DNA of 56,540 bases from Patescibacteria group bacterium (GCA_018817315.1 JAHITV010000002.1:1-56540), one strand, 5' to 3'. Positions 1,187 through 23,856 are shown, counted from the stretch's first letter. Program-made: numbers and translations. The notes: generated by a model from the letters alone, not told the origin.

Positions 1187-1267
1187 AATCCCCAATCCCC
1201 GATTACTAATTACTGATTACCCGTCCGCCTTGGCTACGCCAAGGGCGTGCCGGGCGGGCCGATTACT
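1187..1267. repeat. heptamer-periodic array plus GC-rich hairpin
   Basis: Units aatcccc, aatcccc, gattact, aattact, gattacc span 1187-1221. An imperfect GC hairpin follows at about 1222-1260 (CGCCTTGGC / GCCAAGGGCG). A final gattact at 1261-1267 overlaps the corA stop codon. Confidence 0.6.
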
Positions 1268-2183
1268 AAATTATATCCTTCCACTTTAACCAGACAAAAA
1301 TGCCGACAATCACTACCATTAAACCGCCGAAAATCCACCAAACTAAATTCTCATTATGAATTAAAGGCAATGACTGTACATTCATGCCATAAAGACCGGT
1401 AAAAAGCGTTAAAGGCAACATGGAAACGGAAAAAATCGTCAAAATCTTCATTACCCGATTAAGCCGGTAACTGGTCAGGGATTCGTTAGTTTCATGCAAA
1501 CCGTCTATTAAATCTTTTTCATTGGATAAATTTGAATAAATTCTTTCAATGTAGTCGGAAATATCGTCAAAATAATTAGCCAAATCGCCGCTTAAATAAT
1601 CTTTCTTTAAATTAACTAAACTTTTTATTACAAACCTCTGTGGATCAATAATACTTCTATAAAATAAAATGTTCCTTCGGGCTTGGCCTAAATCTTTGAC
1701 TGACTGGCGAGTGTCTTCTTGATAAACTTTTTCTTCAATCTGGTTAATCTCCTTTGCTAACCAATCAATGATCACAAATGAAGAGGAATAAAGGTGATCA
1801 AGGATATGATATAAAACATGCGCGGCTTTGCCCTGAAAAATTTCATGCTGCAGCTTTTTGTTATTTACTACTCTATAAAAATATTGATTCAATAATTTGA
1901 GCTTCTTTTTTTGAATGGTAATCACGTAATCTTTGCCTAAAAAAATATCCAGCTCATGACTGCCTAATAAGTGGCTATCTTTATAAGTTACGGGAAATCT
2001 TAAAATTATAAAGGCATACATTGCATAAACATCAATCTTTGACCTTTGAGCTTCCCCACGAATATCTTTTATATCTAAAGGATGAAACTTATAGTTATCT
2101 GTTAAATATTTAAAATCTTCAGCCTCCGGTTCGATGATGTTGATCCAGGAAATTTTATTGAATTTTTTAATCTTTAAAGCCAT
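1266..2183 (-). CDS. corA: CorA-family magnesium/cobalt transporter
   Basis: 305 aa with a C-terminal pair of TM helices and the signature YGMN motif (LYGMNV). Confidence 0.85.
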   Translation of the reverse strand: MALKIKKFNKISWINIIEPEAEDFKYLTDNYKFHPLDIKDIRGEAQRSKIDVYAMYAFIILRFPVTYKDSHLLGSHELDIFLGKDYVITIQKKKLKLLNQYFYRVVNNKKLQHEIFQGKAAHVLYHILDHLYSSSFVIIDWLAKEINQIEEKVYQEDTRQSVKDLGQARRNILFYRSIIDPQRFVIKSLVNLKKDYLSGDLANYFDDISDYIERIYSNLSNEKDLIDGLHETNESLTSYRLNRVMKILTIFSVSMLPLTLFTGLYGMNVQSLPLIHNENLVWWIFGGLMVVIVGIFVWLKWKDII

Positions 2184-2192
2184 AACATTAAC

Positions 2193-2375
2193 AAATTCTA
2201 AATACTAAACTCTAAATTCCGTTCGGCTTGAGCTCACGGCCGAAAGCTAAACAAATTCTAATGACCAAAATTCAAATATCAAAACAGCTTTGAACATTTG
2301 AAATTAGAATTCCTGTCTGCCGGTAGGCAGGTTGATATTGTTTAGGATTTAGGATTTCGTGCTTAGGATTTAAAC
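2193..2375. repeat. composite intergenic element: two heptamer arrays flanking two GC hairpins
   Basis: Units aaattct, aaatact, aaactct, aaattcc span 2193-2220. Hairpins are TTCGGC/GCCGAA (2222-2244) and CTGCC/GGCAG (2317-2330). Units tttagga, tttagga, tttcgtg, cttagga, tttaaac span 2341-2375 and abut the gyrB stop codon. Confidence 0.55.
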
Positions 2376-4484
2376 TTATATATCCAAATTCTTAACTGAT
2401 TTGGCATGAGTTTGAATAAACCGCTTGCGAGCAAAAACATCAGAACCCATTAGTATTTCAAAAACTTCATCAGCTTTGGCTGCTTCTTTAACACTGACTT
2501 TCTTCATTATCCGATGCTCGGGATCCATCGTAGTCTCCCAAAGTTGGGTGGGATTCATTTCACCCAAACCTTTATAATGTTGAATGTTAAGTTTAGTGCT
2601 TTTAATTTCAGTTTTATCTTCATCTTCGCCCTCTGCTGAAACATCAGATGTTGAGCCTGTCGAAACATCAGACGCTGAATTTATTGAAGCATCAGATGCT
2701 GAGCCTGTCGAAACATCGGCAAAAACACTGACAAGTTCATTACTACCCAGTTTCTTTTTCAGCTGTTCTAATTCTTCATCGCTATATATATAATAAATCT
2801 CTTTACCTTTTTGCACCCGATACAAAGGAGGTTTAGCAATGTATAAATGTCCTTTTTCCACGATTTGAGGAAAATAGCGATAAAACAAAGTTAAAAGCAA
2901 AGTGCGAATATGAGCACCGTCCACATCAGCGTCAGTCATAATAACAACATGATTATATCTAAGATCTTCCAGTTTAAACTGATCGCCAATATTAGTGCCT
3001 AAAGCCAAAATTAAGGATTTAAGCTCATTATTGGAAACTATTTTATCTATACGTGATTTTTCTACATTAAGAATCTTACCTCTTAAAGGCAAAATGGCCT
3101 GGAAACGTCTATTTCTGCCCTGTTTGGCGCTACCGCCAGCACTGTCACCCTCAACAATAAATAACTCACATTCATCAGGATTACGACTGGAGCAATCCGC
3201 TAACTTTCCCGGCAAAGCCATGCCTTCAAAAGCGCCTTTTCTTAAAACTGATTCACGGGCGCTTCTGGCAGCTACTCTGGCTTGCTGGGCTAAGAAACAT
3301 TTTCCTAAAATTTCTCTGGCATCACGCGGGCCTTCTTCCAAAAAAGCTGTAAAATAATCATTGAAAATATTTTCTACTACTGTGCGTACTTCAGCATTGC
3401 CTAATTTGGCCTTGGTTTGACCTTCAAATTGAGGTTCTTTTAATTTTACGGAAATCACAGCAGTTAAACCTTCTCTTACATCTTCACCGGAAAGATTATC
3501 ATCCTTTTCTTTAAGATGATTATTTTTGCGGGCATAATTATTTAAAACTCTGGTTAAAGCCGAACGAAAACCCACCAAATGCATACCTCCCTCAACAGTA
3601 TGAATATTATTGGCAAAAGTATAAACCATTTCCCGAAAATCAGTGGTATATTGCAAAGCAATTTCCACCTGAATATCATCCTGTTCTTTTTCTACATAAA
3701 AAACTTTTTCCTGGGCAACTTGATGACTATGATTCAAATACCTGACATATGAAGCAATACCTCCTTCAAAATAAAATATGTATGCTTTTTCGCTTGCTGG
3801 AATTCTTTCATCTTTGATAATAATCTTAACTCCCTTAGTTAAGTAGGCCTGCTGGCGCAAGTGATCTAAAATAGTTGCCCAATTATAATCTAAGACCGTA
3901 AAAATTTCAGGATCTGCCTGCCAAAGTTGTGTGGTACCGGTTTCTTTAGTGGTACCTATAGCTTTTAATTTGTTTTTAGTGTTACCTTTGGAATATTCCT
4001 GCATCCAGATTTTACCGTCTCTTTTTACTTCTGTTCTCATAAGAGAAGAAAGAGCATTAACTACAGAAATACCCACGCCATGTAAACCTCCAGAAACTTT
4101 ATAGCCTCCCTCGCCGAATTTACCGCCAGAATGCAAACGAGTCATTACTGTTTCTAAAGCTGACAGCTTGGTCAAAGGATGTTTATCAACGGGAATGCCA
4201 CGTCCATTATCAGAAACTTGAGCTTTGCCTTCAGGCAAAAGTACTACTTTTATTTCATTACAAAAACCAGCCATGGCTTCGTCAATGCCATTATCAACTG
4301 CTTCCCAAACCAAATGATGCAGCCCCTCACCGGCTGTATTACCAATATACATTCCTGGTCTTTTGCGCACAGGATCCAGTCCTTCTAAAACCGTAATTTG
4401 CTTGGCTGTATATTCTGAACTAGCAGACTTTTTTGGCTTAGTTTGAGCTAATTTAGTAGCTGTTTTTTCCGGCTTTTTAGGCAT
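2376..4484 (-). CDS. gyrB: DNA gyrase subunit B
   Basis: 702 aa with GHKL ATPase motifs (HHLVWEAVDN, GGLHGVG), a Toprim EGDSAGG motif and C-terminal YKGLGEMNP. Contains a low-complexity Ser/Asp/Val insertion. Confidence 0.95.
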   Translation of the reverse strand: MPKKPEKTATKLAQTKPKKSASSEYTAKQITVLEGLDPVRKRPGMYIGNTAGEGLHHLVWEAVDNGIDEAMAGFCNEIKVVLLPEGKAQVSDNGRGIPVDKHPLTKLSALETVMTRLHSGGKFGEGGYKVSGGLHGVGISVVNALSSLMRTEVKRDGKIWMQEYSKGNTKNKLKAIGTTKETGTTQLWQADPEIFTVLDYNWATILDHLRQQAYLTKGVKIIIKDERIPASEKAYIFYFEGGIASYVRYLNHSHQVAQEKVFYVEKEQDDIQVEIALQYTTDFREMVYTFANNIHTVEGGMHLVGFRSALTRVLNNYARKNNHLKEKDDNLSGEDVREGLTAVISVKLKEPQFEGQTKAKLGNAEVRTVVENIFNDYFTAFLEEGPRDAREILGKCFLAQQARVAARSARESVLRKGAFEGMALPGKLADCSSRNPDECELFIVEGDSAGGSAKQGRNRRFQAILPLRGKILNVEKSRIDKIVSNNELKSLILALGTNIGDQFKLEDLRYNHVVIMTDADVDGAHIRTLLLTLFYRYFPQIVEKGHLYIAKPPLYRVQKGKEIYYIYSDEELEQLKKKLGSNELVSVFADVSTGSASDASINSASDVSTGSTSDVSAEGEDEDKTEIKSTKLNIQHYKGLGEMNPTQLWETTMDPEHRIMKKVSVKEAAKADEVFEILMGSDVFARKRFIQTHAKSVKNLDI

Positions 4485-4579
4485 AAATAAAAATTAGAAA
4501 GAATCTTGCTATTTTTTGGCTAACTGTAGCCAATATTTACCCTTTTATGATAGCATATTTTAGGAATTTAATCAAGTGC

Positions 4580-4600
4580 AAAAAACCCCATTTCAGGGGC
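4580..4600 (-). terminator. intrinsic terminator after pheT
   Basis: Minus strand reads GCCCC TGAAAT GGGG followed by TTTTTT. Confidence 0.5.
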
Positions 4601-4649
4601 AAATTTTAAAAATATTTTTAATTAGAATTTGGGACGAAAAAAAGAATAA

Positions 4650-7046
4650 CTAACGGACTTCAGCTTTGAATTTTTTAGTTAACTGCTTAACAATTTTATC
4701 CCTTAATTTTGAAGTTTCTTCTGCAGTTAAAGTTCTTTTAGAATCGCTAAAATATATATGAAAAGCTAAGGATTTTTTATCCGGACCTAATTTTTCTATT
4801 TTGTAGATATCAAATAACTGAACCTTTTGAACCAAAGAACTGGTTTCTAAAACCTCTTGCCTAATATCTGCCCAATAAGTATTTAAAGGCACAATAATGG
4901 ATAAATCATAAATAATTCCCGGAAATTTAGGCAAGGGCTGATATTTTTTATTATCCTGAGAAAACTTTAAAAGCTGATTAAAGCTGATTTGCCAATAGCC
5001 TACTGGCTTGCCATCGGAAAATTCATTAATTGTTTCTGAAGCCAATTCTGTTAAATAACCGATAGTTTGCTCATTAACAATAATTTCTAAACAGCTTAAA
5101 GGATTAATGAATTTTTTATCACTCTTTTCTATCTGCCTAAATTCATAAACCACTTCCAGTTGACCCAGTAAAGTTTCAACTATGCCTTTAATTTTATAAA
5201 AAGCATCCTCGCCTACACTTAAGCCAGCCAAATGCTTTTCCTGTTGAGCTAAAAATGTATCCTCTTGATTATTGATTTTAAATTCGCCAGTTTCTTTAGT
5301 AAAGACTCGTCCTAATTCAAATAAATCAAACTCTTTAAAAAATCTTAAATTATCAGTGAGATTTTTTAAAAGATTAGAAAGCAAACTGCTTCGTAAATAT
5401 CTTTGTTCTGAAGAAAAATAATTTTTTAATTGCCAATGATCTTCTGTTTTTAATCCTAAAGGTAAAATATATCCTGTGTCAGTAAAAGAATAATTATAAA
5501 CCTCTGTTAAGCCGCAATTATTGACTAAAATATTTTTGATTTTTCTTTCAATAAATCTTTCTAAATTAAATTCCGGATGAGCCATAGAAACCATGGGCAT
5601 TTTACCTTCAATATAATCGTAACCGTAAATTCTGGCTATTTCTTCTATTAAATCTTCAGGAAGAGAAATGTCACGCGTGGCTCTAAAAGAAGGCACTTTT
5701 ACCTTTAACTGTGAAGCTTGCTCTTTAACAGTAAATTCCAAACTTTCCAAAATCTTAATAATTTCTTTTTTGGCTATTTTTTGACCAATACGTCTTTCTA
5801 CAAAATCTAAATCTAAATTTATGATTATTTCCTTTTCTTTAAAATTAACAACATCTACTGCCTTGCTTATTACTTTGCTTGAGGGAATAATTTCTTTAAT
5901 TAAAGTTATAAACCGTTTTAGGGCTAATTCTGTTAATAAAGGATCTAAACTTTTTTCATGACGAACCGCTCCCTCAGTCCTTAAACCTAAAGCTTGCGAG
6001 GTCTTGCGAATATTAACTGGATTAAAATTAGCGAATTCAACAATAATTTCTGTAGTATCGTCTACCACTTCACTGTTTTGGCCGCCCATAATGCCAGCTA
6101 TTGCTACTGGTTTAGTTTGATCATTGATCATTAAGGCATTATCCGATAACTCCCGAATTTGATCATCTAAAGTAGTGAATTTTTGATTGCTTAAAGTTTT
6201 GACAATAATCGTGTCTTTGGTTATTTGCCGGCGATCAAAAGCATGTAAGGGCTGGCCTAATTCCATCATCACATAATTAGTTAAGTCAACCACATTATTG
6301 ATAGGACGAACGCCAATAGTTTTTAATAAATTCTGCAACCAAAAAGGTGAAGGTTCAATTGTTATTCCTCCGATCATTACTCCCATATAACGGGGGCAAT
6401 TTACTGGATCTTGAACTTTAACCTTAAATTCAGTTTTACCTTCCTCTTTAACATTAGCTACCTCCACTGGTTTTAATTTAAGACCAAGAATAGCCGCTAT
6501 TTCCCTGGCTATACCGTAATGACCCCATAAATCAGGACGATTAGTTAGTGATTTATTTTCAATTTCATAAATAACATCATCTAAATCCATTACTTCTTTA
6601 ACTAAACTGCCCACTTTTGTATCTGGTGGAAAATAAGTAAGTATTTCCTCGCCGCCCACCATAAACTCACTGTCCAAACAAATCATGCCTTGCGAAAGAA
6701 CACCTCTAATTTTTTGTTTTTCCACTTTTATGCCAGTAGGTAAGGTGCTTGGCGCTAACACTATTGGCACTAAATCCCCTTCCTTAACTTGCGCCATTGA
6801 ACCAAAAACAACCTGAACAGTTTCTTCGCTTTTAATATCAATTTCTGCTACCCAAAGTTTATCCGCATCAGGATGCTTGGTTATTTTAATAATATGACCA
6901 ACATATAAATCACTTAATTTTTCCCCACTATCAATAACCTCTTCCACTTCCACTGTAGACATGGTTAATTTTAAAGCCAATTCTTTAGGATCAAAATCAG
7001 CAGGAATATCAACATAATGTTTAAGCCAGTTTAAGGAGACTTTCAT
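4650..7046 (-). CDS. pheT: phenylalanine--tRNA ligase beta subunit
   Basis: 798 aa with an N-terminal tRNA-binding domain, B3/B4 and B5 regions, and a C-terminal FDX-ACB-like end. Lies immediately downstream of pheS. Confidence 0.93.
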   Translation of the reverse strand: MKVSLNWLKHYVDIPADFDPKELALKLTMSTVEVEEVIDSGEKLSDLYVGHIIKITKHPDADKLWVAEIDIKSEETVQVVFGSMAQVKEGDLVPIVLAPSTLPTGIKVEKQKIRGVLSQGMICLDSEFMVGGEEILTYFPPDTKVGSLVKEVMDLDDVIYEIENKSLTNRPDLWGHYGIAREIAAILGLKLKPVEVANVKEEGKTEFKVKVQDPVNCPRYMGVMIGGITIEPSPFWLQNLLKTIGVRPINNVVDLTNYVMMELGQPLHAFDRRQITKDTIIVKTLSNQKFTTLDDQIRELSDNALMINDQTKPVAIAGIMGGQNSEVVDDTTEIIVEFANFNPVNIRKTSQALGLRTEGAVRHEKSLDPLLTELALKRFITLIKEIIPSSKVISKAVDVVNFKEKEIIINLDLDFVERRIGQKIAKKEIIKILESLEFTVKEQASQLKVKVPSFRATRDISLPEDLIEEIARIYGYDYIEGKMPMVSMAHPEFNLERFIERKIKNILVNNCGLTEVYNYSFTDTGYILPLGLKTEDHWQLKNYFSSEQRYLRSSLLSNLLKNLTDNLRFFKEFDLFELGRVFTKETGEFKINNQEDTFLAQQEKHLAGLSVGEDAFYKIKGIVETLLGQLEVVYEFRQIEKSDKKFINPLSCLEIIVNEQTIGYLTELASETINEFSDGKPVGYWQISFNQLLKFSQDNKKYQPLPKFPGIIYDLSIIVPLNTYWADIRQEVLETSSLVQKVQLFDIYKIEKLGPDKKSLAFHIYFSDSKRTLTAEETSKLRDKIVKQLTKKFKAEVR

Positions 7047-7087
7047 AAATTATATACTTTTTCCACCAAAGGCGGATAATTTTAAAC

Positions 7088-8113
7088 TTAAAATTGTTGT
7101 AAGAATCTTAAATCACCTGATTGCAAAAGTCTGATATCATCAATGCCGTATTTCATCATCACTAATCTGGTTAAACCTAAACCAAAAGCAAAACCAGACC
7201 ACTCTTTAGGATCTAAGCCACCATATTTTAAAACATTGGGATGGACCAAACCGCAAGGCACCATTTCTACCCAGCCAGAATGCTTACACACCGGACAACC
7301 TTTACCGCCACAAATTAAACAGTTCACATCCAGTTCAAAACCAGGTTCTACAAAAGGAAAATAACCGGGTCTTAATCTTATCTTAACTTCTCTTTTTAAA
7401 ACCTCTTTTAATAAAACTTTCATCACCGCTATTAAATTATCAATAGAAATATCCTTATCAATCATTAAACCTTCCAACTGATAAAAAGTGGTATCATGAG
7501 AAACATCCGTAGCTTCGTATCTAAAACATCTGCCCGGGAAAACTGCCCTTAAAGGTGCTTGGTATTTTTCTATGGTCCTAACTTGCATATTAGAAGTATG
7601 CGTGCGCATCACCCAGCCAGTTTTATCTTTGATGAAAAAAGTGTCCTGCATGTCTCTAGCCGGATGAGTCGGCGGAATATTTAAAGCTTCAAAGTTGTAA
7701 TATTCTGATTCCAATTCCGGTCCTTCTAAAATAATAAAACCCATGCGAGAAAAAACATCCTCTAATTGATACTGAATAAGAGAATTGGGATGTAAGTGGC
7801 CTTTAATAAATTTTCTGCCGGGCAAAGTAACATCTAACCATTTTTCCTTAGATGAACCAGCTTTTTCTTTTTTGTTTAATTCAAACTTTATTTCAGAAAT
7901 TAACTGATTTAATTCCTCTTTGATTTCGTTGCCCAATTGACCGAACTTGGGTTTTTCCTCTGCCGCCAAATCCTTAACTTGCCTTAAAAGTTTAGTCAAT
8001 TCTCCTTTACGACCCAAATATTTGACCTCTAAATTATGAAGCTCCTTTAAAACCTTGGAATTTTTTATTTCTCTTACGGCTTTTTCTTTTAATTTTGTAA
8101 GTTGATCAAACAT
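7088..8113 (-). CDS. pheS: phenylalanine--tRNA ligase alpha subunit
   Basis: 341 aa with class II core motifs (HPARDMQDTFF, FRYE, GFAFGLGLTRL). Confidence 0.95.
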   Translation of the reverse strand: MFDQLTKLKEKAVREIKNSKVLKELHNLEVKYLGRKGELTKLLRQVKDLAAEEKPKFGQLGNEIKEELNQLISEIKFELNKKEKAGSSKEKWLDVTLPGRKFIKGHLHPNSLIQYQLEDVFSRMGFIILEGPELESEYYNFEALNIPPTHPARDMQDTFFIKDKTGWVMRTHTSNMQVRTIEKYQAPLRAVFPGRCFRYEATDVSHDTTFYQLEGLMIDKDISIDNLIAVMKVLLKEVLKREVKIRLRPGYFPFVEPGFELDVNCLICGGKGCPVCKHSGWVEMVPCGLVHPNVLKYGGLDPKEWSGFAFGLGLTRLVMMKYGIDDIRLLQSGDLRFLQQF

Positions 8114-8123
8114 ACATTGGCTT

Positions 8124-8501
8124 TTAACTTTTCTTTAAAGAAATAATTAAAAATTCTATACAGATTAATAAAAATACTAACAGTAAAGCATTTAGCCAAG
8201 TTAATAAATGATGGGATTGTAAAAATAAAGTAACCACTATAACTATGGCAAAAAATAATGCCTGTCTAAAAGCGATTTGCGCCTGCTCAAATTCCGGAAA
8301 ATGTTTGGTAAAAATGTATCTTATAAAAAATCCTAAAAGAGATAAAGTTCCGGTAACCGCAAAAAATAAACTTAAATAAAAAAGAAAAATACCGAATTTA
8401 GCAGTGGTTTCGGGGTTAATAAAAAAAAGCACTGCCAGCCAAGCTCCCCAGGAAATAATAGTAACTATCACCATTAAAAGTATATACTGCTTGATATTCA
8501 T
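8124..8501 (-). CDS. small integral membrane protein (about 4 TM), unknown function
   Basis: 125-aa ORF made almost entirely of hydrophobic helices. It sits 10 nt downstream of pheS. Confidence 0.5.
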   Translation of the reverse strand: MNIKQYILLMVIVTIISWGAWLAVLFFINPETTAKFGIFLFYLSLFFAVTGTLSLLGFFIRYIFTKHFPEFEQAQIAFRQALFFAIVIVVTLFLQSHHLLTWLNALLLVFLLICIEFLIISLKKS

Positions 8502-8592
8502 AAATTTAAATACAGCATTATTCTACTATTTTTTTGCTTTTTTAGCAATATTTATATATCTTCAAATATTAAATATTGATATAATATCTATA

Positions 8593-8979: not shown

Positions 8980-9013
8980 TTTATCTCCATTGTAAAAAAT
9001 TGTGTTTTTATTC

Positions 9014-9166
9014 TTAGTCTGTTATAACAACATTCTTTTTACTTGGATATTTTTCTGAAAAAACAGGATTAATCACAGGAATATTATCAGCCATTATAAC
9101 TTTTGCATCATCTCCATATTTTTTCGCTATTCTTTCTAATTTTTCAATGAATTCTTTTAGCTTCAT
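9014..9166 (-). CDS. unannotated 50-aa ORF (MKLKEFIEKLERIAKKYGDDAKVIMADN...)
   Basis: Hand-translated and below the track's size cutoff. Its ATG overlaps the TGA of the upstream ORF (ATGA at 9163-9166), suggesting translational coupling. Confidence 0.3.
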   Translation of the reverse strand: MKLKEFIEKLERIAKKYGDDAKVIMADNIPVINPVFSEKYPSKKNVVITD

Positions 9167-9894: not shown

Positions 9895-9914
9895 ATTTTT
9901 TAAAATTAAACGAA

Positions 9915-10163
9915 TTAAAACTCAAAATCCTTTTCTATGCCTCTGCTTTTATCCCAATCACCTTTATTAACAGAAACTCTTCTGCCAGAATGAACAGAAA
10001 ATCCCCCATTTGAAAGGTTATAAGGTGGATCAGCAAAAATCATATCAATTGACTCTGATTTAACTCGTTTAATTACTTTAAAAATATCACCAAAATAAAG
10101 GTTAAATTTGCGCTGCTTGTCTTGAAAATAAGCTTTTTGTTTATCTTCCATCGGAAATTTCAT
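9915..10163 (-). pseudogene. truncated DNA methyltransferase (N-terminal fragment, beta-class N6A/N4C type)
   Basis: 82 aa containing IFADPPYNLSNGGFSVHSGRRVSVNKGDWDKS (motif IV DPPY). It ends at TAA 9915 before any AdoMet-binding FxGxG region, and no continuation appears in any frame downstream. Confidence 0.7.
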
Positions 10164-10190
10164 AGTTAAAATTTAACATTTCTAGGGTAA

Positions 10191-10220: not shown

Positions 10221-10261
10221 TATGTTACTTACTTTACTCAATTATATAATAAAAGGCAAGA

Positions 10262-13222: not shown

Positions 13223-13261
13223 GAGCTTATTTTAGCATAATCATTATATAATCGTAAGTAC

Positions 13262-13289
13262 TTGACTTTTAAAAAAGATGTTTTATAAT
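13262..13289 (+). promoter_or_regulatory. sigma70-type promoter of the orphan RNA locus
   Basis: TTGACT (13262-13267), a 16-nt spacer, then TATAAT (13284-13289). Confidence 0.55.
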
Positions 13290-13295
13290 GGAGAT

Positions 13296-13767
13296 ATTAA
13301 GGTCGGTTGTTTGTCTTAAAATCACGAAGGATGATAGCTGGGCAGCTTGACAAATAACCGACCGGTTCTTTTCATTATTTTTAGTTAGCCGCATGCTCTT
13401 TTTTAGCAACCGGTCATTTGTCTTCAGAAAGGAAGGTCGTGTGGGTAATTTAGACTTATGACCGGTCTGCCCCTTTTATGATTTTGGTCAGCCGCACACT
13501 CTTTGACAATGAAGTTAAGAGGATATATTGTCCCTTCCGACTTTATAGTGCATGGCTGGCCACCTTTTTTGACCGGCGGCTGTTATTCTTTGAAACGCTT
13601 TACTTACTTGCTCGCTCTGACCAAGGAATACAGCCAAGCCGGTCAATCTTTTTTCGTTCTTCGCCCTCACATCTCCCACCATGCTCTGGATGATGGATTT
13701 ATACCACCTCCAGGCAGACACCCTGACGCTGATTGTTCCCCTGTGATCAGTATTGGGTGTTTTTTTA
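13296..13767 (+). ncRNA. structured non-coding RNA of unidentified class (three tandem hairpin modules)
   Basis: A G+C-elevated gap between two minus-strand genes, with only overlapping nonsense ORFs on both strands. Bounded by a promoter and a terminator. Long hairpins lie at 13301-13363, 13409-13466 and 13571-13644. A conserved tail YAGCCGCAYRCTCTTT occurs at 13385-13402 and 13487-13504. The 5' end is estimated from the -10 box. Confidence 0.5.
13718..13767 (+). terminator. intrinsic terminator ending the RNA locus
   Basis: ACACCC...CTGAT...ATCAG...GGGTGT hairpin (13718-13760) followed by a T-run at 13760-13766. Confidence 0.6.
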
Positions 13768-13784
13768 TTTTAAATTTTTATATA

Positions 13785-13809
13785 TAAAAAAGACGTTTAG
13801 CTTACGCCT
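13785..13809 (-). terminator. intrinsic terminator after atpC (end of the atp operon)
   Basis: Minus strand reads AGGCGT AAGCTAA ACGTCT followed by TTTTTT. Confidence 0.45.
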
Positions 13810-13836
13810 CACGCCTTATGTATTAGTTGACTTTGT

Positions 13837-14283: not shown

Positions 14284-14304
14284 AGATTCATGTATCATAT
14301 TATT

Positions 14305-14355
14305 CACGACTCACGTATCAATTTTTTGTCTATTTTGATACGTGATACGTGAAAC
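14305..14355. repeat. heptamer units forming a hairpin between the four-helix-bundle gene and atpC
   Basis: Units cacgact, cacgtat ... gatacgt, gatacgt. TCACGTATCA (14311-14320) pairs with TGATACGTGA (14336-14345). Confidence 0.55.
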
Positions 14356-14703
14356 TTATTTATATTGTATTGTCTTCCAAAGCATTGCTCCAATTTCATC
14401 TGCTTGCTTGGCTAAAATTTTATAATTATTATCTTTGATATATCCTTCATCATGAGAAAAACTGATTAAATATTCTGATTCTTTTAATGAAGCATAACTT
14501 ATTCTCAAAAAATTCTTATTAACCCTAACACCTTGCCTGGCAAACCCTTCTATATAATTTAGTATTACCGACAAAGATGAGCGACGGAATTGACTCGTAA
14601 CTCCGTATAATTCATCTTTAGGAAAGGTCTTGGTTACTTTATATACATTATGAACATAAAGATTCATTTTTTTCTTGAGCTCGCCGTGAAATCGCTTTTC
14701 CAT
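14356..14703 (-). CDS. four-helix-bundle protein (family formerly called 23S rRNA intervening-sequence protein, PF05635-like)
   Basis: 115 aa from ATG 14703 (MEKRFHGELKKKMNLYVHNVYKVTKTFPKDELYGVTSQFRRSSLSVILNYIEGF...), with the size and motif pattern typical of that family. The upstream part of track ORF 14356..14817 runs through a repeat array and was trimmed. Confidence 0.75.
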   Translation of the reverse strand: MEKRFHGELKKKMNLYVHNVYKVTKTFPKDELYGVTSQFRRSSLSVILNYIEGFARQGVRVNKNFLRISYASLKESEYLISFSHDEGYIKDNNYKILAKQADEIGAMLWKTIQYK

Positions 14704-14726: not shown

Positions 14727-14761
14727 TCGTATATCGTGATTCGTTATTCGTATATCGTATC
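14727..14761. repeat. heptamer array (tcgtata, tcgtgat, tcgttat, tcgtata, tcgtatc)
   Basis: Five exact-period-7 units directly upstream of the four-helix-bundle gene. Confidence 0.6.
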
Positions 14762-14855: not shown

Positions 14856-15392
14856 TTATGGCAATTCTACAGGTTCGTTTTCTTTAAATTCTTTAGTTAT
14901 TATTAATCCATTATGACTATACTTTATACTAAGTGTTTTAACAACACCCTTATCGGGATCACCGGTAATTTCATTTGAAGCCACCGTTTTTAACTTGTCA
15001 TCTCTTATTTGTTTATTCAGCTCATCGGTTACATTAAAATTTTTTGCCGGTGAGCCGTATTTTGCTTCCAATATTTTAAGTCTAGTATCATCATAACTTT
15101 CTTTTAGAACAGATTTTGTGTCACCAGAGCCAATAATTTCTTTTATCGTTGGTTTCTTAAAATAACTAAAGAATATAAAAACACCGAAACATATTATACC
15201 TAATATTAACAAGTATAAATTCTCTGGTTTTGCTGCATAAAATCCGATTAAACCCGTTGCAATGAAAAGGAATATTTCTCCAGTTACTTTATTACTTCTA
15301 ATATTATTTAAATCATTTTCACTAACTAGAAAATATGTTTCGGTACGTCCTTTTATTTTTGTTTTAACCAATTTGTCATTTAAATTAGTCAT
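14856..15392 (-). CDS. two-TM membrane protein with a DUF3395-like C-terminal domain
   Basis: 178 aa with two hydrophobic helices (about residues 40-80). The C-terminus LKILEAKYGSPAKNFNVTDELNKQI...ITGDPDKGVVKTLSIKYSHNG resembles the DnaJ-associated DUF3395 fold, recalled from memory. Confidence 0.5.
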   Translation of the reverse strand: MTNLNDKLVKTKIKGRTETYFLVSENDLNNIRSNKVTGEIFLFIATGLIGFYAAKPENLYLLILGIICFGVFIFFSYFKKPTIKEIIGSGDTKSVLKESYDDTRLKILEAKYGSPAKNFNVTDELNKQIRDDKLKTVASNEITGDPDKGVVKTLSIKYSHNGLIITKEFKENEPVELP

Positions 15393-15467
15393 ATGGTTAT
15401 AAAAATATTTATCTTACTTCCTGCGGAGCCAGTACGCGGTGATATGTGAAGTCCTGTTTTTCTTCTA

Positions 15468-15932
15468 TTATTTTAAGTTATACTTTTTTATTAACTCTTC
15501 CATCATTTGTAAAAAAGGTTCTGGAGATGGAGCATCACCACCTTTGATAAAAATACCTCTTTCAATAGCTTTATCAAATAAATTCACCACATATTCTGTA
15601 TCCTTCATAGTGCTTGAGCCAAGCATTTGATTTGCTTGAATAAACACTCTTAAGGCATCAGTGATGGGTCTTTTTAATTCAGGATGTTTAGTACCTAAAT
15701 TTTTGATTTCCTCAGCCACTATTTTTTTATTTTCACTAAATGTTTTTTGACTCTCTGGATTATGACATCCAAAAATTTCATTAATTATTGAAGTAGCTAA
15801 TGTTTTATAGAATTTTTCTCCCTTTTCTTTATACTTTTCTGCAAAGTCTTCTGTAAGCACTTTATATAGTACAAGTTTAACAACGTCAACTCCTTGGATC
15901 ATTTTTTGAGCTAGTCTTTTTATACCAAACAT
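15468..15932 (-). CDS. hypothetical alpha-helical protein
   Basis: 154-aa ORF with an ATG start and no motif I recognise. Third gene of the block inserted between atpD and atpC. Confidence 0.45.
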   Translation of the reverse strand: MFGIKRLAQKMIQGVDVVKLVLYKVLTEDFAEKYKEKGEKFYKTLATSIINEIFGCHNPESQKTFSENKKIVAEEIKNLGTKHPELKRPITDALRVFIQANQMLGSSTMKDTEYVVNLFDKAIERGIFIKGGDAPSPEPFLQMMEELIKKYNLK

Positions 15933-15990
15933 AATTTTAAATTAGTTGTTAAGAAAAACAGGATTTTATATATCAAACACTGTATGAACC

Positions 15991-16023
15991 CCCGACTCCC
16001 GACACACGATACACGATCCACGA

Positions 16024-16025
<2 letters not shown>
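15991..16025. repeat. heptamer array (cccgact, cccgaca, cacgata, cacgatc, cacgatt)
   Basis: Five period-7 units. The last unit overlaps the atpD stop codon at 16024-16026. Confidence 0.6.
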
Positions 16026-17418
<1,393 letters not shown>

Positions 17419-17451
17419 TTAATTTATTATTAATTTTTGTAATGATACTGA

Positions 17452-18375
17452 TTACTCTAATGCTGCTTTACCGCCGGAAATATCCGCAAGCTCCGTAGTA
17501 ATAGCTGCCTGACGCGCCTGATTATAAGCTAAAGTTAAGGAGTCAATCATGTCTGAAGCTGCTAAAGAAGCATTTTGCATAGCCATCATCCTGGCTGAAT
17601 GCTCTGAAGCGTCTGATTCTAAAATGGCCTGATAAATCTTTACTTCAATTAAGCGAGGCAGCATTGCCGAAAGCACTTCTTCGGCAGATGGCTCAAATAA
17701 ATATTCAAATTTTTCTGCGTGTGCTTCTGACTTTGTAGAACCTTTTTGCTTAGCTGACTCAACTTCTCCCAAATATTCATCCTGTTTTTCCGGCTCCAAA
17801 GGCAAGAGTTGAAGAATTCTGGGCTTTTGTGATAAAGAGGAAATAAAATCAGTATAAGCAATTACTACTTCGTCATATTTATTGGCTAAATAATCTTCTA
17901 TTACTAAATGGCTTAAAGATCTAATTTCTTCAATTTGAGTGGTGATATCAAGCTTAGGGAATTCGGCAATAATGGAATATTTTCGCTTTAACATAACTTC
18001 CCTGCCCTTTTTACCTATGAGAATTAATTCTATTTCTAAATCATTATTCTGCTTTTGCTGTTTAATAAAAGCAATAGTTTTATTGATAATCTGATGATTA
18101 AAACTGCCGCATAACCCTCTGTTAGAAGTGATTAAAACTAAACCGATTTTATTTACTTCTCGTTTGATTAATAAGGGATGATATTTTGATTCAGTACGCG
18201 CTGCTAAATCTAAAACTGCGTTCCAGGCTAAATCAGCATAAGCACGTGATGTTAAAACATTATTAACAGCTTTGCGCATTTTAGCAGCCGAAACCAACTC
18301 CATAGCTTTGGTAATTTTTTTAGTATTACCTATGGACTTAATCCGTCTTTTAATTTCTCTGGTTAATTGCGGCAC
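17452..18375 (-). CDS. atpG: F1 ATP synthase gamma subunit
   Basis: 307 aa with N-terminal REIKRRIKSIGNTKKITKAMELVSAAKMRKA and C-terminal ITTELADISGGAAAL-like end. Apparent GTG start. Confidence 0.9.
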   Translation of the reverse strand: MPQLTREIKRRIKSIGNTKKITKAMELVSAAKMRKAVNNVLTSRAYADLAWNAVLDLAARTESKYHPLLIKREVNKIGLVLITSNRGLCGSFNHQIINKTIAFIKQQKQNNDLEIELILIGKKGREVMLKRKYSIIAEFPKLDITTQIEEIRSLSHLVIEDYLANKYDEVVIAYTDFISSLSQKPRILQLLPLEPEKQDEYLGEVESAKQKGSTKSEAHAEKFEYLFEPSAEEVLSAMLPRLIEVKIYQAILESDASEHSARMMAMQNASLAASDMIDSLTLAYNQARQAAITTELADISGGKAALE

Positions 18376-18396
18376 GTTTTAAAAAATTAAATTATT

Positions 18397-18431
18397 AATT
18401 ACTGATTACCGATTACTTGTTACTGATTACT
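18397..18431. repeat. heptamer array (aattact, gattacc, gattact, tgttact, gattact)
   Basis: Period-7 units in the atpA-atpG spacer. The last unit overlaps the atpA stop codon. Confidence 0.6.
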
Positions 18432-19938
18432 AACCTACAAACATCTTCTTAAAATCATCAACAACACTAATCAATTTTTGTTCCAGCTTTTCATCTAAAT
18501 CACCTTTTTCTTTAATTTTAGTGATTAAATCTTTGGCAGTGGTGTCTAAATATATATGAAACTGATCTTCAAATTCCTTAATTTTTTCCACAGGAATATC
18601 ATCCAATAACCCTTTGACCCCGGCATATAAAATAACTACCTGATGTTCTATAGTCATAGGTTGATATATACCCTGTTTAAGAATTTCGGTTAAACGTTTA
18701 CCTAAATTCAACTGTTTTTGAGTGGTTTCATCTAAATCAGATCCAAACTGGGCAAAAGCTGCCAGCTCCCGGTATTGCGCCAGATCAAGTCTTAATTTGC
18801 CAGCCACTTTTTTCATGGCTTTAATCTGGGCAGCAGACCCTACCCGGGAAACAGAAAGACCAATATTCAAAGCTGGCCGGATTCCTTGATAAAACAAATC
18901 TGATTCTAAATAAATTTGTCCGTCAGTAATAGAAATAACATTTGTAGGAATGTAAGCGGAGATATCTCCTGCCTGTGTTTCAATAATCGGCAAAGCAGTT
19001 AAGGAACCTCTGCCATGTTCTTTGTTCATTTTCGCTGCCCTTTCCAAAAGACGGGAGTGTAAGTAAAAAATATCTCCAGGAAAAGCTTCTCTGCCTGGCG
19101 GCCTTCTTAAAAGTAATGCTATTTCCCGGTAAGCAACTGCATGTTTAGAAAGATCATCATAAATAACTAAGACATCCTTGCCTTGATCCATAAAATATTC
19201 TCCCATAGCACAACCAGCATAAGGAGCAATAAAAGAAAGTGAAGCTGGATCTGATGCTCCTGCCACCACCACCACTGTATAACTCATGGCCTGATACTTT
19301 TGCAGTTTATCCACTATTTTGGCTATTTTTGACTCTTTTTGAGCGATCGCCACATAAATACAAATAACCTTTTCCTGTTTTTGGTTGATAATAGTATCTA
19401 TAGCTAAAGCAGTTTTTCCGGTTTGTCTGTCGCCAATAATCAATTCTCTTTGACCACGGCCAATAGGAATCATAGAATCTATGGCTTTGATACCGGTTTG
19501 CAAAGGAGTATTAACTGGCTCACGGGTAATTACCCTGGGTGCGATTTTTTCTATAGGATAAAACTGATCAGTTTTAATTTCACCTTTGCCGTCTAAAGGT
19601 TTACCCAAAGGATCAACCACTCTGCCAATAATTGATTTTCCTACCGGCACTTCTAAAATTCTGCCTGTTGATTTAACAGTATCCCCTGATTTAATTTTTA
19701 AATAATCTCCCAAAATCATAGCCCCCACTGAATCTTCTTCCAGATTCAAAGCCACGCCAAAATTATTATTGCCAAAATCCAACATCTCCTGGGACATGCA
19801 ATTGGATAAACCAGAAATTTTAGCAATACCATCCCCCACTTCTGTAACAATGCCGACTTTTTCTGTAGTAGTACTGGCTTTAAAATCATCAAGCTGCTTT
19901 TTTAATTGTTCAATAATTTGATCTTTACCACTTGTCAT
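18430..19938 (-). CDS. atpA: F1 ATP synthase alpha subunit
   Basis: 502 aa with Walker A GDRQTGKT and conserved alpha-subunit sequence. Confidence 0.97.
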
Positions 19939-19961
19939 ATTTTATAAATAGTTACCTTTTA

Positions 19962-20363
19962 TTATTTTAATAAAAAATTATGTAAATTATTCAACTGCCT
20001 TAACATACTGCTATCCAAAACAACATCCTGATATTTTATAATAAAACCACCCATTAATTTCTGGTTAATTATTTTAGTAAGGTAAATCTTCTTTTTTAGA
20101 ATTCCTTCCAACCATTTGCTTATTGCCTGATAAGTTTGCCCGGATAATTTTTGATGGGTGATGATTTCCACTTCTTCAATTTTTTCGTGCTGATTATAAA
20201 TTTGATTAAACTTAGTAATTATTTTATCAGCCAATTTTAAATTTTTATTCTTAACTAATAATTTAACAAAGTTTTGCAACACTTCCTTTAAAGCTTTGGC
20301 GCTACCACTCTTAGTGGTTTGATATAATGCTTCGGCATATTGTTTAATAGTAATTTTCTTCAT
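19962..20363 (-). CDS. atpH: F1 ATP synthase delta (OSCP) subunit, short form
   Basis: Lies between atpF and atpA and has an OSCP-like N-terminus (YAEALYQ...). Start moved to ATG 20363, since the track start is TTG 20381 overlapping atpF. Confidence 0.7.
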   Translation of the reverse strand: MKKITIKQYAEALYQTTKSGSAKALKEVLQNFVKLLVKNKNLKLADKIITKFNQIYNQHEKIEEVEIITHQKLSGQTYQAISKWLEGILKKKIYLTKIINQKLMGGFIIKYQDVVLDSSMLRQLNNLHNFLLK

Positions 20364-20373
20364 AAAAATATCT

Positions 20374-20883
20374 TTAATCAAAAGGAAGATCTTTATCCTT
20401 TAATGATCCTTTAATAAACTTCTCATCTATATCTTTGGAAACAACTTTATCCAAAACTTTTTTAGTAGTTTCCATAGTTAAATTAACTACCTCGCTTTTG
20501 ACTTCTTTCATCATTTTACTTTTTTCCTGGGCAATCTGCTCTTTAGCTCCAGCAATAATAGTAGTTACCTCTGCTTTAGCGCGATCAACCATTTCTTCTC
20601 CTTGTTTATTGCCTTCTGTTTGAGCTTTTTGAATAATTGCTTGAGCTTCTTTTCTTGCCTCGGTTAATTTTCCTTCTCTTTGTTTTTGGGATTTAACTAA
20701 ATCTTCCTCAATCTTTTTAGCATCTTCCAAGCTCTTTTCTATTTCCTTGGTTCTGTTATTCATCATGCGCGAAAGGGGTTTTACAGCAAATTTCCATAAA
20801 ACAAACAGCACAATGCCAAAATTTACTAATTGCGCCACTAAAAGCCGCCAATCAATATGAAATGTTTTAATTAATTCATCCAT
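20374..20883 (-). CDS. atpF: Fo ATP synthase subunit b
   Basis: 169 aa with a single N-terminal TM helix followed by a long charged coiled coil. Operon position fits. Confidence 0.8.
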   Translation of the reverse strand: MDELIKTFHIDWRLLVAQLVNFGIVLFVLWKFAVKPLSRMMNNRTKEIEKSLEDAKKIEEDLVKSQKQREGKLTEARKEAQAIIQKAQTEGNKQGEEMVDRAKAEVTTIIAGAKEQIAQEKSKMMKEVKSEVVNLTMETTKKVLDKVVSKDIDEKFIKGSLKDKDLPFD

Positions 20884-20893
20884 AATATTTCTG

Positions 20894-20997
20894 GTATCAG
20901 TAATTAGTAATCGGTAATCAGTAACTAGTAATCAGAGAAAAATCCCCCCAATTACCAATTACCGATTACTAATTACTAGTTACTCAATTATCAATTA
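20894..20997. repeat. two inverted heptamer arrays containing a perfect 20-bp inverted repeat
   Basis: Left array is six units taatYRg (20894-20935). Right array is seven units Yaattac/cgattac (20949-20997). AGTAATTAGTAATCGGTAAT (20899-20918) is exactly complementary to ATTACCGATTACTAATTACT (20958-20977). Confidence 0.65.
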
Positions 20998-21043
20998 ACT
21001 TCAGAGGACCAAAAAGATCCTCTAAATGCCAATGGACAATTAC

Positions 21044-22193
<1,150 letters not shown>

Positions 22194-22211
22194 TAGTTAG
22201 TTTTACCAAAA

Positions 22212-22520
22212 TTAATCCTGATTAAACTTTTGTTTCTCTTTATTATCTTCTTTATGTAATTTTTTTTCTTGTAATTCCTTTTCTATCTTTTTAGTGTATT
22301 TAGCAGTTATCAAAACAATGCCTAAACAAGAAATACCAAAAGCAATAATAGTTAAGCCCAAAAAAATCCAAGGCTCGGTTCCATATTTATCATCTAAAGC
22401 ACGGCCGACAAAAAGAGCAATTAAAATTGGCACAATAATCCAACCGCTGACTTGGGAAAAAATAACAAGAGCTGGCTGCCACCAGGCCTCTTTGCCTTTT
22501 TCTGGCTCTTTATTTGCCAT
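22212..22520 (-). CDS. AtpZ/AtpI-like small membrane protein at the head of the atp operon
   Basis: 102 aa with two TM helices (WWQPALVIFSQVSGWIIVPILIALFVGRALD...). First gene of the atp cluster. Confidence 0.6.
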   Translation of the reverse strand: MANKEPEKGKEAWWQPALVIFSQVSGWIIVPILIALFVGRALDDKYGTEPWIFLGLTIIAFGISCLGIVLITAKYTKKIEKELQEKKLHKEDNKEKQKFNQD

Positions 22521-22609
22521 AAAATTGTTAATGACTCAATAAAAGAACTCCAACTCGGAGTTTTCATGAATTAAGCTAAATTTCCACAAAAAACCGATTT
22601 TTCGCCTAT

Positions 22610-22638
22610 ATTATAGAGAAAACTTACCAATAAATCAA
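22610..22638 (-). promoter_or_regulatory. candidate atp operon promoter
   Basis: Minus strand reads TTGATT (22638-22633), a 17-nt spacer, then TATAAT (22615-22610). Confidence 0.45.
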
Positions 22639-22712
22639 GGGTAGGTAATTTTTTTGGCTAAGATTAGCAGAAATATGGATTGAATTTTAAAATCAATAAT
22701 TTCCTATTCCCC

Positions 22713-22747
22713 GATTACTGATTACCGATTACCAGTTATTGATACCT
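22713..22747. repeat. heptamer array (gattact, gattacc, gattacc, agttatt, gatacct)
   Basis: Period-7 units just downstream of the rmuC stop codon (22755). Preceded by cccc, as at 1197-1200. Confidence 0.6.
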
Positions 22748-22754
22748 ATTTAAA

Positions 22755-23789
22755 CTATTCCACCTTCGGCTTATCTAAAACTTGCGGCTCTATCTTTGAT
22801 TCTCCGCTAGTAATTTTAACTACATCCTTATCAATCTTCTTGAATTCATTATAAGCAGTGTTGTAAGTATTAACGACGGTTCCTAAATTATTACCAAGTT
22901 TTTTTAGATATTCGTTATAATTCAAAATATGCTTGCCTAACATTTCCACATTCTTTCTGATCTCTTTGGCTGACTCTTCAATCTGCAAAGCGCGAAGTCC
23001 TTGTAGAACTGTTTGTAAATATGCCAAAAATGATGTCGGTGAAACAATAATCACATGCTTTTCTTTAAAGGCGTACTCAATTAAATCTTGAGTATTAACT
23101 TGTACCGCACCGACTTTATTAATCAGTAAATCATAATAAATCGCTTCGGAAGGAATAAACATAAAAGCAAAGTCCATGGTATTTTCCGAAGGTTTGATGT
23201 ATTTGGAAGTTTCATCAATTCTGTTTTTTAAATCCTGTTTGAATAATTTTTCTAATTTCTCTCGTTCACCAGTATCTTGAGCGGAAAGAATGCGTTCATA
23301 ATTCTCCAAAGAAAATTTTGAATCAATAGGAATAATTTTATCTTTGACAAACACTACCGCATCAACCATTTCGCCGTTTTTGAAGCTGTACTGCATTTGA
23401 TACGACTTTGGCGGTAAAACATTTTTTAGAACTGTTTCCAGATAATATTCCCCCAGTACGCCACGCTGTTTGGGATTTTTTAAAATATCCTGTAGATTTT
23501 TCAACTGGTCAGCAAAATTAACTACCTGCTTGTTGGTTTCGTCAAGCTTAGTTAATCTTTCGGTGACATCCTGAATAATCTTAGTTGATTGACCAAACTG
23601 GGTTTGTAAAATTTTTGTTGATTCTCCTAACTTTGAATCTAAAGTTTTGGTAACTTCATTAATTTGGTTCTGTAGCATTAATAATGACTGATCTTGGGAA
23701 ATATCCTTTTTCTTTTTCCCAATTAACCAAAATAAGATAGCAAATCCTGCTATTATCACAATTATTAAAATGATGAATTCTAGAGACAT
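22755..23789 (-). CDS. rmuC: DNA recombination protein RmuC
   Basis: 344 aa with an N-terminal TM helix, a coiled coil, and the RmuC C-terminal nuclease-like region (MFIPSEAIYYD...). Confidence 0.85.
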   Translation of the reverse strand: MSLEFIILIIVIIAGFAILFWLIGKKKKDISQDQSLLMLQNQINEVTKTLDSKLGESTKILQTQFGQSTKIIQDVTERLTKLDETNKQVVNFADQLKNLQDILKNPKQRGVLGEYYLETVLKNVLPPKSYQMQYSFKNGEMVDAVVFVKDKIIPIDSKFSLENYERILSAQDTGEREKLEKLFKQDLKNRIDETSKYIKPSENTMDFAFMFIPSEAIYYDLLINKVGAVQVNTQDLIEYAFKEKHVIIVSPTSFLAYLQTVLQGLRALQIEESAKEIRKNVEMLGKHILNYNEYLKKLGNNLGTVVNTYNTAYNEFKKIDKDVVKITSGESKIEPQVLDKPKVE

Positions 23790-23790
23790 A

Positions 23791-23856
23791 GGATATAGGT
23801 TATTGGATATAGGTTATTGATTATTTCAGCCCGAGGCTGACCCGCCTTTGGCGGGG
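23791..23856. repeat. heptamer array plus two GC hairpins abutting the rmuC start codon
   Basis: Units ggatata, ggttatt, ggatata, ggttatt, gattatt span 23791-23825. These are followed by CAGCC-CGA-GGCTG and CCCGCC-TTT-GGCGGG hairpins (23826-23856). Confidence 0.55.

Follow-up and report, generated by a model that had tools for sequence, protein, structure and literature searches.

The spacers between essential genes in a 56,540-nt contig of a Patescibacteria group bacterium (GCA_018817315.1, JAHITV010000002.1:1-56540; hereafter the window, meaning the whole stretch of DNA that was analysed) carry short tandem arrays of 7-nt units, which raises the question of what these heptamer arrays are and how they are tolerated within operons such as atp. 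The window belongs to the Candidate Phyla Radiation (CPR, Patescibacteria), has a GC content of about 35% and bears nearly all of its genes on the minus strand, and the best matches of its AtpA are metagenome-assembled genomes (MAGs) of Patescibacteria, at <=76%. The arrays are confined to the first 24 kb and to the surroundings of corA, gyrB, rmuC and the atp operon; this operon runs in the order atpB-E-F-H-A-G-D, followed by three extra small genes and then by atpC. The heptamer arrays form a genuine class that is specific to intergenic DNA and recurs across the lineage, and they are hairpin repeats resembling the short tandemly repeated repetitive (STRR) sequences of cyanobacteria and the intervening sequences (IVS) of rRNA, new for the operon spacers of CPR bacteria.

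The periodicity was assessed by counting runs, defined as 21-nt stretches that match themselves at 16 or more positions when shifted by the lag in question, with dinucleotide-preserving shuffles as the null. Across the whole window, 9 period-7 runs were observed against 0.2 expected, the other periods from 4 to 13 gave 0-3 runs each, period 14 gave 4, which represent the 2x7 harmonic, and period 15 gave 2. All 9 strong period-7 runs are intergenic: the 5,076 nt of intergenic DNA held 9 where 0.075 were expected and none of 200 shuffles gave more than 1, each other period from 4 to 12 gave 0 or 1 run there, and the 51,306 nt of coding DNA contained zero period-7 runs in the same 21-nt test. This comparison of intergenic with coding DNA had been proposed in a first-pass annotation of the window, which listed period-7 intergenic arrays at no fewer than ten sites; Tandem Repeats Finder and the shuffle statistics agree with it, and the listed 7-nt units can be read directly in the raw sequence. 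Tandem Repeats Finder placed period-7 arrays at 1202-1220, 2193-2219, 2341-2372, 14336-14352, 14727-14760, 16000-24, 18398-18431, 20896-20935, 20948-20997 and 22711-22733, and a 14-nt (2x7) array at 23791-23819, all of them built of imperfect units with 68-91% matches. The contacts with coding sequences were also borne out by the coordinates, with arrays overlapping or touching the stop codons of corA (1266), gyrB (2376), atpD (16024) and atpA (18430), and one array touching the start codon of rmuC (23789). Two statements of that annotation had to be altered, since the GC-rich, TTCG-phased array proposed at 33522-33556 shows only about 11/27 lag-7 matches and was flagged by none of the scans, belonging, as one of its two arms, to an unrelated hairpin that is GC-rich and about 120 nt long, and since a period of always 7 holds within this genome but not among its relatives, which also use 8, the period following the protein clade of the gene described below.

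Eight of the window arrays make up four inverted pairs; the arrays are thus mostly inverted pairs and therefore hairpin arms, so that a single dispersed family, as first supposed, is replaced by hairpin arms plus solo arms, whereas the structural constraint supposed along with it is supported by this pairing; the protein-spacing constraint that was named as the other option may also play a part. The atpE|atpF spacer (minus strand) harbors a gene-less hairpin whose arms are both heptamer arrays (20894-20935 and 20948-20997), with arms of 34 nt that are 82% complementary, rising to 92% over 26 nt, and the sense RNA of 20884-21030 has a predicted fold of -62 kcal/mol (z-score -9.4, a value that includes the neighbouring atpE hairpin), against -36.8 for the antisense. 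A second heptamer hairpin on the minus strand (14303-14353, arms 14303-14321 and 14335-14353; TCACGTA x2 ... TACGTGA GTCGTGA) stands between the stop codon of a four-helix-bundle gene and the start of atpC, with arms 89% complementary, a fold of -23 kcal/mol (z -7.3) and a duplex energy of -23.5 versus -5.7 for shuffles. The first-pass annotation had named a lack of conservation in relatives as a reason to abandon the arrays; this hairpin is kept in the orthologous position in two relatives, at the loci denoted L164 and L161, with no compensatory changes seen by eye among the three sequences. The minus-strand array at 14727-14761, which lies upstream of the four-helix-bundle gene and has five units (NNNACGA in the sense direction), and the minus-strand array at 15991-16025, reading TCGTGNN on the sense strand and running out of the atpD stop codon, form a predicted duplex of -29.9 kcal/mol versus -12.6 for shuffles, and the pairing of 14727-14761 with 14336-14353 is weaker, at -13.3 kcal/mol; 0/200 shuffles reached the value in either case. 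The whole gyrB|corA spacer is filled by a gene-less element of 192 nt (2184-2375, plus strand) whose ends are inverted arrays of the AAATTCT type (2193-2220) and the TTTAGGA type (2341-2375) and whose interior holds two GC hairpins, at about 2222-2247 and 2314-2332, and an inverted repeat at 2254-2311. This element shares inverted terminal arrays and the lack of an open reading frame (ORF) with miniature inverted-repeat transposable elements (MITEs), and the window, to which the search was confined, showed neither a target-site duplication nor a further copy.

The four-helix-bundle gene (14356-14703, minus strand) is the last of the three extra genes between atpD and atpC and encodes a protein of 115 aa starting MEKRFHGEL, with matches to PF05635 (1.9e-26) and TIGR02436 (2.3e-26), the "S23p" or "23S rRNA intervening sequence protein" family. 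It is the only gene of this family in the window, with only one element there enclosing the ORF, the enclosing pair being modestly complementary, and the closest homologues of its product (78-80% identity) are likewise encoded between atpD and atpC, in L161 and L164. The arrangement was followed in a sample of 80 loci, collected with the homologue alignment as query at one genome per species and drawn from CPR, Planctomycetes, Omnitrophota, Elusimicrobia, Bacteroidota, WOR-3 and others. Among these loci, 48/108 period-7 and 56/79 period-8 arrays lay within 200 nt of a PF05635 gene, a zone that makes up 9% of the sequence, and of the arrays of periods 5, 6, 9, 10 and 11 (3-18 each in all) none lay within that distance. 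The two flanks of a gene always had equal periods, 8/8 in 19 loci, 7/7 in 9 and 7/8 in none, and the upstream and downstream arrays are mutual reverse complements, with 30-70 predicted inter-arm base pairs per cassette and a mean inter-arm duplex energy of -41 kcal/mol versus -25 in two controls. The loop lengths of the inverted pairs are bimodal, with 34 pairs below 100 nt and 47 pairs at 300-400 nt, the second mode corresponding to the length of the ORF. The PF05635 gene was co-oriented with its upstream neighbour in 66/76 loci and with its downstream neighbour in 58/69, the flanking spacers measured about 44 nt on each side, and on the transcribed strand the 5' arm was purine-rich and the 3' arm pyrimidine-rich in 34/42 loci (p = 1e-5). 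Arm complementarity, the co-orientation of the elements in operons and the way they fill the spacers right to the stop and start codons of the adjoining genes are shown, as is an arrangement of the gene-carrying form that is shared across many phyla. No identical protein in differing contexts, sought as a sign of recent mobility, was detected, as P0098 was always located between secY and map. Many contigs of about 1 kb carry PF05635 genes, which is consistent with assemblies breaking at these elements.

Many CPR atp loci likewise carry period-7 arrays with other unit sequences, up to 13 in one locus, and about 30 Bacillota atp loci from the same search contained zero. The same gene was also traced into cyanobacteria, where a tblastn search of the window protein against 72,556 plasmids returned 25 records, almost all of them cyanobacterial, and inverted heptamers of the STRR type flanked the PF05635 gene in 14/16 inspected plasmid loci, with units such as GGAGTCA / TGACTCC, GGGAGTA / TACTCCC, GGTGACA / TGTCACC and GGGAAAA / TTTTCCC. 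These cyanobacterial genes often stand inside operons, for example cas10-cmr3 and cas6-cas4. Hundreds of independent assemblies show the architecture, finished plasmids and chromosomes of cyanobacteria among them.

The reverse direction was examined by scanning genomes for (RATTACY)3, the main unit of the window, which yielded 120 loci with 127 array sites in 857 kb, mostly cyanobacterial, with some from Bacteroidota, Chloroflexota and Planctomycetes. These loci hold 356 period-7 arrays, compared with at most 33 for any other period, and the loops of their inverted pairs are mostly shorter than 100 nt. No PF05635 gene was found within about 4 kb of the 127 sites or anywhere in the 857 kb, so the gene is not required for the array. 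The co-occurrence with PF05635 genes suggested earlier therefore holds from gene to arrays (the 80 loci and the 14/16 cyanobacterial ones) but not from arrays to gene (0 at the 127 sites): nearly every copy of the gene has arrays, and most arrays are gene-less. A version in which every array is the remnant of a gene-carrying cassette was dropped on the same count.

The analogy with STRR repeats that the first-pass annotation had drawn is stronger now, given that the (RATTACY)3 arrays are mostly cyanobacterial and that the PF05635 genes of cyanobacteria are heptamer-flanked. Canonical STRR units are CCCCA(A/G)T (STRR1), TTGGTCA (STRR2) and CAACAGT (STRR3), and these heptamers have served in cyanobacterial fingerprinting for about 35 years. 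The AATCCCC unit found twice at window 1187-1200 is a rotation of the STRR1 form CCCCAAT; the other window units differ from the canonical ones. We know of no explanation to date of the origin and function of STRR repeats, which were reportedly first described in heterocystous cyanobacteria by Mazel and colleagues in 1990. Tandem units of exactly 7 nt in several sequence families, an intergenic position and a frequent ability to form hairpins are common to both groups, and the GATTACY unit of the window is arrayed mainly in cyanobacteria. The host of the window, however, belongs to the CPR and not to the (heterocystous) cyanobacteria, its genome is small and has a GC content of about 35%, and lineages related to it use 8-nt units. 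In the literature, of which our coverage was incomplete, no paper was found linking STRR repeats with PF05635 genes and none on heptamer arrays in CPR bacteria, and a general link of S23p four-helix-bundle genes with heptamer arrays was apparently unreported before.

The build of the gene-carrying form is that of the 23S rRNA IVS of Coxiella, a 428-nt selfish element with a terminal stem of 28 bp whose loop contains the S23p ORF; RNase III cuts it in mid-stem, as mapped by rapid amplification of cDNA ends (RACE), and 2-3 tandem GACAGAT heptamers, varying in number by strain, precede the ATG (Warrier et al. 2016, PMC4990558). Insertions in the rRNA of CPR bacteria also encode 23S_rRNA_IVP (PMC11270868). 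Shared with the IVS of Coxiella and Leptospira are a PF05635 ORF in the loop of a stem of terminal inverted repeats (in the window, in the one element around 14356-14703), tandem heptamers near the ATG, which in Coxiella lie just upstream of it, the sense orientation of the ORF within the host transcript and, as far as Coxiella is concerned, an element that is regarded as selfish and whose stem is cut by RNase III. The window elements differ in that they sit in the mRNA spacers of operons (atpD|atpC) and not in helix 9, 25 or 45 of 23S rRNA, and in that most copies lack an ORF; RNase III cutting is known from Coxiella and others. No PF05635 cassette was found inside rRNA in 40 related loci, and the window itself gave no Rfam match at gathering scores, no rRNA, and no tRNA or tmRNA in a dedicated search. 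Domain scans of the window ORFs detected no RNase III gene.

Taken together, we give about an even chance to the reading in which the window arrays are fast-evolving, IVS-like hairpin elements in operon spacers that are probably substrates of RNase III, a CPR counterpart of the cyanobacterial STRR repeats with the element build of S23p-carrying 23S IVS. A full element would comprise a 5' arm in which 3-8 imperfect units of 7 nt (8 nt elsewhere among the lineages) are arrayed in tandem, a loop that is short or holds the PF05635 four-helix-bundle ORF, and a 3' arm that is the reverse-complement array. Within polycistronic transcripts the two arms would pair as a duplex of 20-40 bp that RNase III may process, and we propose that such inserts are tolerated in essential operons such as atp because RNase III cuts the duplex. 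Slippage would shift the number of units, and as tandem units can pair in several registers, the arms may therefore grow and decay quickly. Solo arrays would be decayed or half elements, and the GC mini-hairpins that accompany some of them would be secondary insertions. Seen with the comparative data, the window links the STRR repeats, the rRNA intervening sequences and the S23p family, the latter two having been as unexplained so far as the STRR repeats themselves, to one arrangement, namely inverted 7/8-nt arrays within operons with a PF05635 gene in the loop. The gene-array link makes the old STRR question experimentally approachable, and annotators may expect the spacers of essential CPR operons to be colonised by fast-evolving hairpin elements.

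Several observations weigh against this reading. The arrays at 1187-1221, 18397-18431, 22706-22747 and 23791-23825 are solo, with neither an inverted partner nor a predicted structure, and the gene-less elements contain no PF05635 remnants, their six-frame translations matching the PF05635 profile only as noise (E > 1); to these is added the absence of the gene around the (RATTACY)3 sites. The gyrB|corA element is more stable on the antisense strand (-48.1 kcal/mol, z -4.7, on the plus strand; -43.7, z -2.6, on the gene-sense strand), and across 76 cassettes the sense strand was the more stable in 42 and the antisense in 29 (p = 0.09), so that, with the sense strand not significantly better folded, a role at the DNA level is conceivable. 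RNase III cutting in the window organism is something we only infer, and the unit length of 7 or 8 nt is left unaccounted for.

An alternative that we hold to be rather unlikely is that the arrays are cognate protein sites, where each clade of the four-helix-bundle protein would recognise a 7- or 8-nt unit of its own, and perhaps propagate or maintain it, at approximately one protomer of a pentameric ring per unit, the gene flanked by its own sites and the orphan arrays being dispersed sites; this would account for the way in which period and unit co-vary with the protein clade. The array period does track the protein clade, nearest neighbours agreeing in 47/61 cases versus 30 expected (p = 0.0005), array units are alike within clades, two PF05635 paralogues in one locus have different units, and orphan arrays match the gene-flank unit (at most one mismatch) in 32% of within-locus versus 5% of between-locus comparisons; on two small cyanobacterial plasmids, moreover, the remaining heptamer arrays mostly share the unit of the gene flanks. 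A motif, SQ.RR..S...N..EG, is invariant in the homologue alignment, the solved relatives 2GSC and 2RLD in the PDB have five chains per entry each, and the Xanthomonas protein is cited as a homopentameric ring (PMC4990558). These correlations, however, could reflect the joint descent of gene and flanks, the commonest orphan unit of the window, GATTACY, differs from the units around its sole PF05635 gene, the stand-alone PF05635 proteins have no known nucleic-acid binding, and the Coxiella protein is seemingly not made in vivo (PMC4990558). The model for this is that of the repetitive extragenic palindromic (REP) and REPIN elements with their REP-associated tyrosine transposases (RAYTs) (Bertels & Rainey 2011, PMC3116915), which resembles the present system in its abundant short intergenic hairpin repeats, in a minority gene that stands between inverted copies of its own kind of repeat and in the co-variation of repeat type with gene clade, PF05635 taking the place of the RAYT by analogy. 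Unlike that model, the window system has no Y1/HUH transposase, for no transposase domain was found in any scanned window ORF and the array-flanked gene is PF05635, not Y1 (HUH); its 115-aa protein is a helical bundle for which no catalytic activity is known, and its repeats are tandem 7-8-nt units where REP is a single palindrome of 20-40 nt. On this analogy the stand-alone PF05635/S23p proteins might even be the trans-acting partner of STRR-type repeats, and CPR arrays, STRR repeats and IVS stems might form one cross-phylum system of a selfish repeat and a non-transposase protein, a prospect that we likewise regard as improbable.

An equally doubtful alternative is that the arrays serve the host as intercistronic structures, in which stem-loops made by slippage would govern how stable the mRNA is, or how it is processed, between genes whose products are required in unequal amounts, and PF05635 and PDDEXK_3 genes would accumulate in the loops because insertion there is harmless. 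The arrays do lie between atp genes of unequal stoichiometry, gene-less hairpins far outnumber gene-carrying ones, and the arrays of one cassette were identical in 7 strain-level assemblies, with no difference in copy number, and are thus not unstable. Yet the occupied atp spacer varies from genome to genome among close relatives and its sequence turns over wholesale, which is unexpected for a conserved regulatory site, period and unit track the inserted gene, and the fixed unit of 7 or 8 nt is left without a reason.

Far less probable than either is that the arrays are phase-variable simple-sequence repeats (contingency loci) whose copy number switches the neighbouring genes, as heptanucleotide repeats do in Haemophilus HMW1A and as the difference between 2 and 3 heptamers among Coxiella strains (PMC4990558) might suggest; the window units are imperfect, the arrays stand inside housekeeping operons and not at promoters, and the copy number is constant in the 7 assemblies just mentioned. 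Chance or an assembly artefact in AT-rich intergenic DNA, to which a metagenome-type CPR contig with repeats prone to mis-assembly might give rise, is effectively refuted by an enrichment of about 120-fold over shuffles that is specific to period 7, by the like arrangement in hundreds of independent assemblies, finished cyanobacterial replicons included, and by the conserved orthologous position of the hairpin before atpC.

The solo arrays of the window are partly associated with small GC-rich hairpins. The direct array at 1187-1221 (AATCCCC x2, then GATTACT, AATTACT and GATTACC) has no inverted partner in its spacer, and the fold there (z -1.3 to -2.4) arises from a GC-rich hairpin at 1222-1260, which folds to -27.8 kcal/mol and interrupts the GATTACY array, with GATTACC on its left and a GATTACT unit (1261-1267), overlapping the corA stop codon (1266-1268), on its right. 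The GATTACT-type array at 18397-18431 (minus strand) takes up the atpA|atpG spacer, overlapping the stop codon of atpA, and has no local structure (-0.7 kcal/mol), and the atpA|atpG spacer of L161 contains a heptamer array too. Likewise without local structure is the GATTACY array at 22706-22747 (minus strand), which lies just downstream of the rmuC stop codon. The array at 23791-23870 (minus strand; GGATATA / GGTTATT x2 plus GATTATT), which is the one touching the rmuC start codon, is interrupted by a 31-nt GC double hairpin at 23826-23856, with GATTATT on both sides. The GC hairpins that had been described beside the arrays are indeed present, but they look like separate small insertions and not like an integral core, and those at 1222-1260 and 23826-23856 in particular look like secondary insertions into arrays. 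A few further cases of heptamer arrays broken by GC mini-hairpins were observed in other CPR loci. The double hairpin at 23826-23856 (CCGCCAAAGGCGG + TCAGCC...GGCTGA), about 30 nt in length, has a near-exact copy at 10391-10420 of L021, a distant Paceibacterota genome, where it is present without heptamers, and the two copies suggest that miniature GC-rich elements make up a family of their own. The pheT|pheS spacer holds a related CCACCAAAGGCGG hairpin (window 7063-7075). The interruption of heptamers by the hairpins at 1222-1260 and 23826-23856 resembles, in a comparison made by description only, the small dispersed repeats (SDR) of Nostoc, which Elhai and colleagues are said to have described in 2008 as tiny hairpin insertions within tandem heptamers.

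Two further genes of the window, orf178 (14856-15392) and orf154 (15468-15932), both on the minus strand and without a Pfam or NCBIfam family, are enclosed by the arrays at 14727-14761 and 15991-16025. The former has a hydrophobic stretch and may be membrane-associated, and the latter has its own 25-nt inverted repeat (15440-15464 / 15951-15975). Both are absent at the orthologous site in L161 and L164, and since they are missing in these closest relatives they represent a later insertion. Other ORFs that appeared to be enclosed by inverted arrays were rejected as cargo, being mostly host genes (ScpB, L32, AtpE and a PLD-like protein), which are bracketed because arrays of one unit occupy successive spacers. 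A real second cargo family is PF13366 (PDDEXK_3), which in CPR is bracketed by arrays in like manner, its genes in L012 and L184 having flanks of ACACAGA-type arrays of 7-8 nt.

Additional small elements were encountered among the sampled loci. Heptamer-armed four-helix-bundle genes are wedged into the CRISPR-Cas operons of three cyanobacterial plasmids (L168, L260, L264), one at cas10/cmr2|cmr3 and those at cas6|cas4 in two species. The Anabaena sp. 90 plasmid pANA02 (L389) carries a heptamer array (10103-10131; GGTAATT x2, GGTGATA) in the spacer between reverse transcriptase and avd of an annotated diversity-generating retroelement, Avd being a characterised relative of PF05635. Small PD-(D/E)XK_3 ("GxxExxY") genes of PF13366 in L180-L259, mostly from Bacteroidota, are flanked by inverted arrays of period ~9-10 (GGATTANNN / AATCATGGT), and in Bacteroidota these arrays end in a conserved GTCTGAACC...GGTTCAGAC pair. 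Other recurrent GC-rich palindromes (such as gtcatcctgaacttgtttcaggat..., tgtcattcccgcgaaagcgggaatc... and cctctccctctgggagagg...) were found in the atp spacers of L004, L008, L010, L012, L014, L017 and L020, and it appears that small elements of several families generally land in the atp spacers of CPR bacteria.

Elsewhere in the window, the hairpin to which 33522-33556 belongs is a GC-rich long inverted repeat at 33515-33640 (GACACTTCGGCCCTTCGCTCT ... AGAGCTTAGGGCTCAGTGTC) in a divergent intergenic region of 351 nt; the surrounding 206 nt have a predicted fold of -70 kcal/mol (z -3.2), an Rfam search of 33400-33800 gave no match at E <= 1, and the repeat could be a structured RNA of a new type or a palindromic element. 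Downstream of atpC, 614 nt (13223-13836) contain only a doubtful 94-aa ORF with a TTG start and no Rfam match. Near-identical terminator-like hairpins (CCATAGGGATTGGCAAC[G/A]TGCCGATCCCTTTTTTT) at 35470-35515 and 36680-36725 follow the adjacent genes 34379-35443 and 35645-36655, both of which lack a family match and may be tandem paralogues, and the gene after 35645-36655 encodes a C-terminal sorting domain of the Por/T9SS (type IX secretion system) type, which is unusual in a CPR genome.

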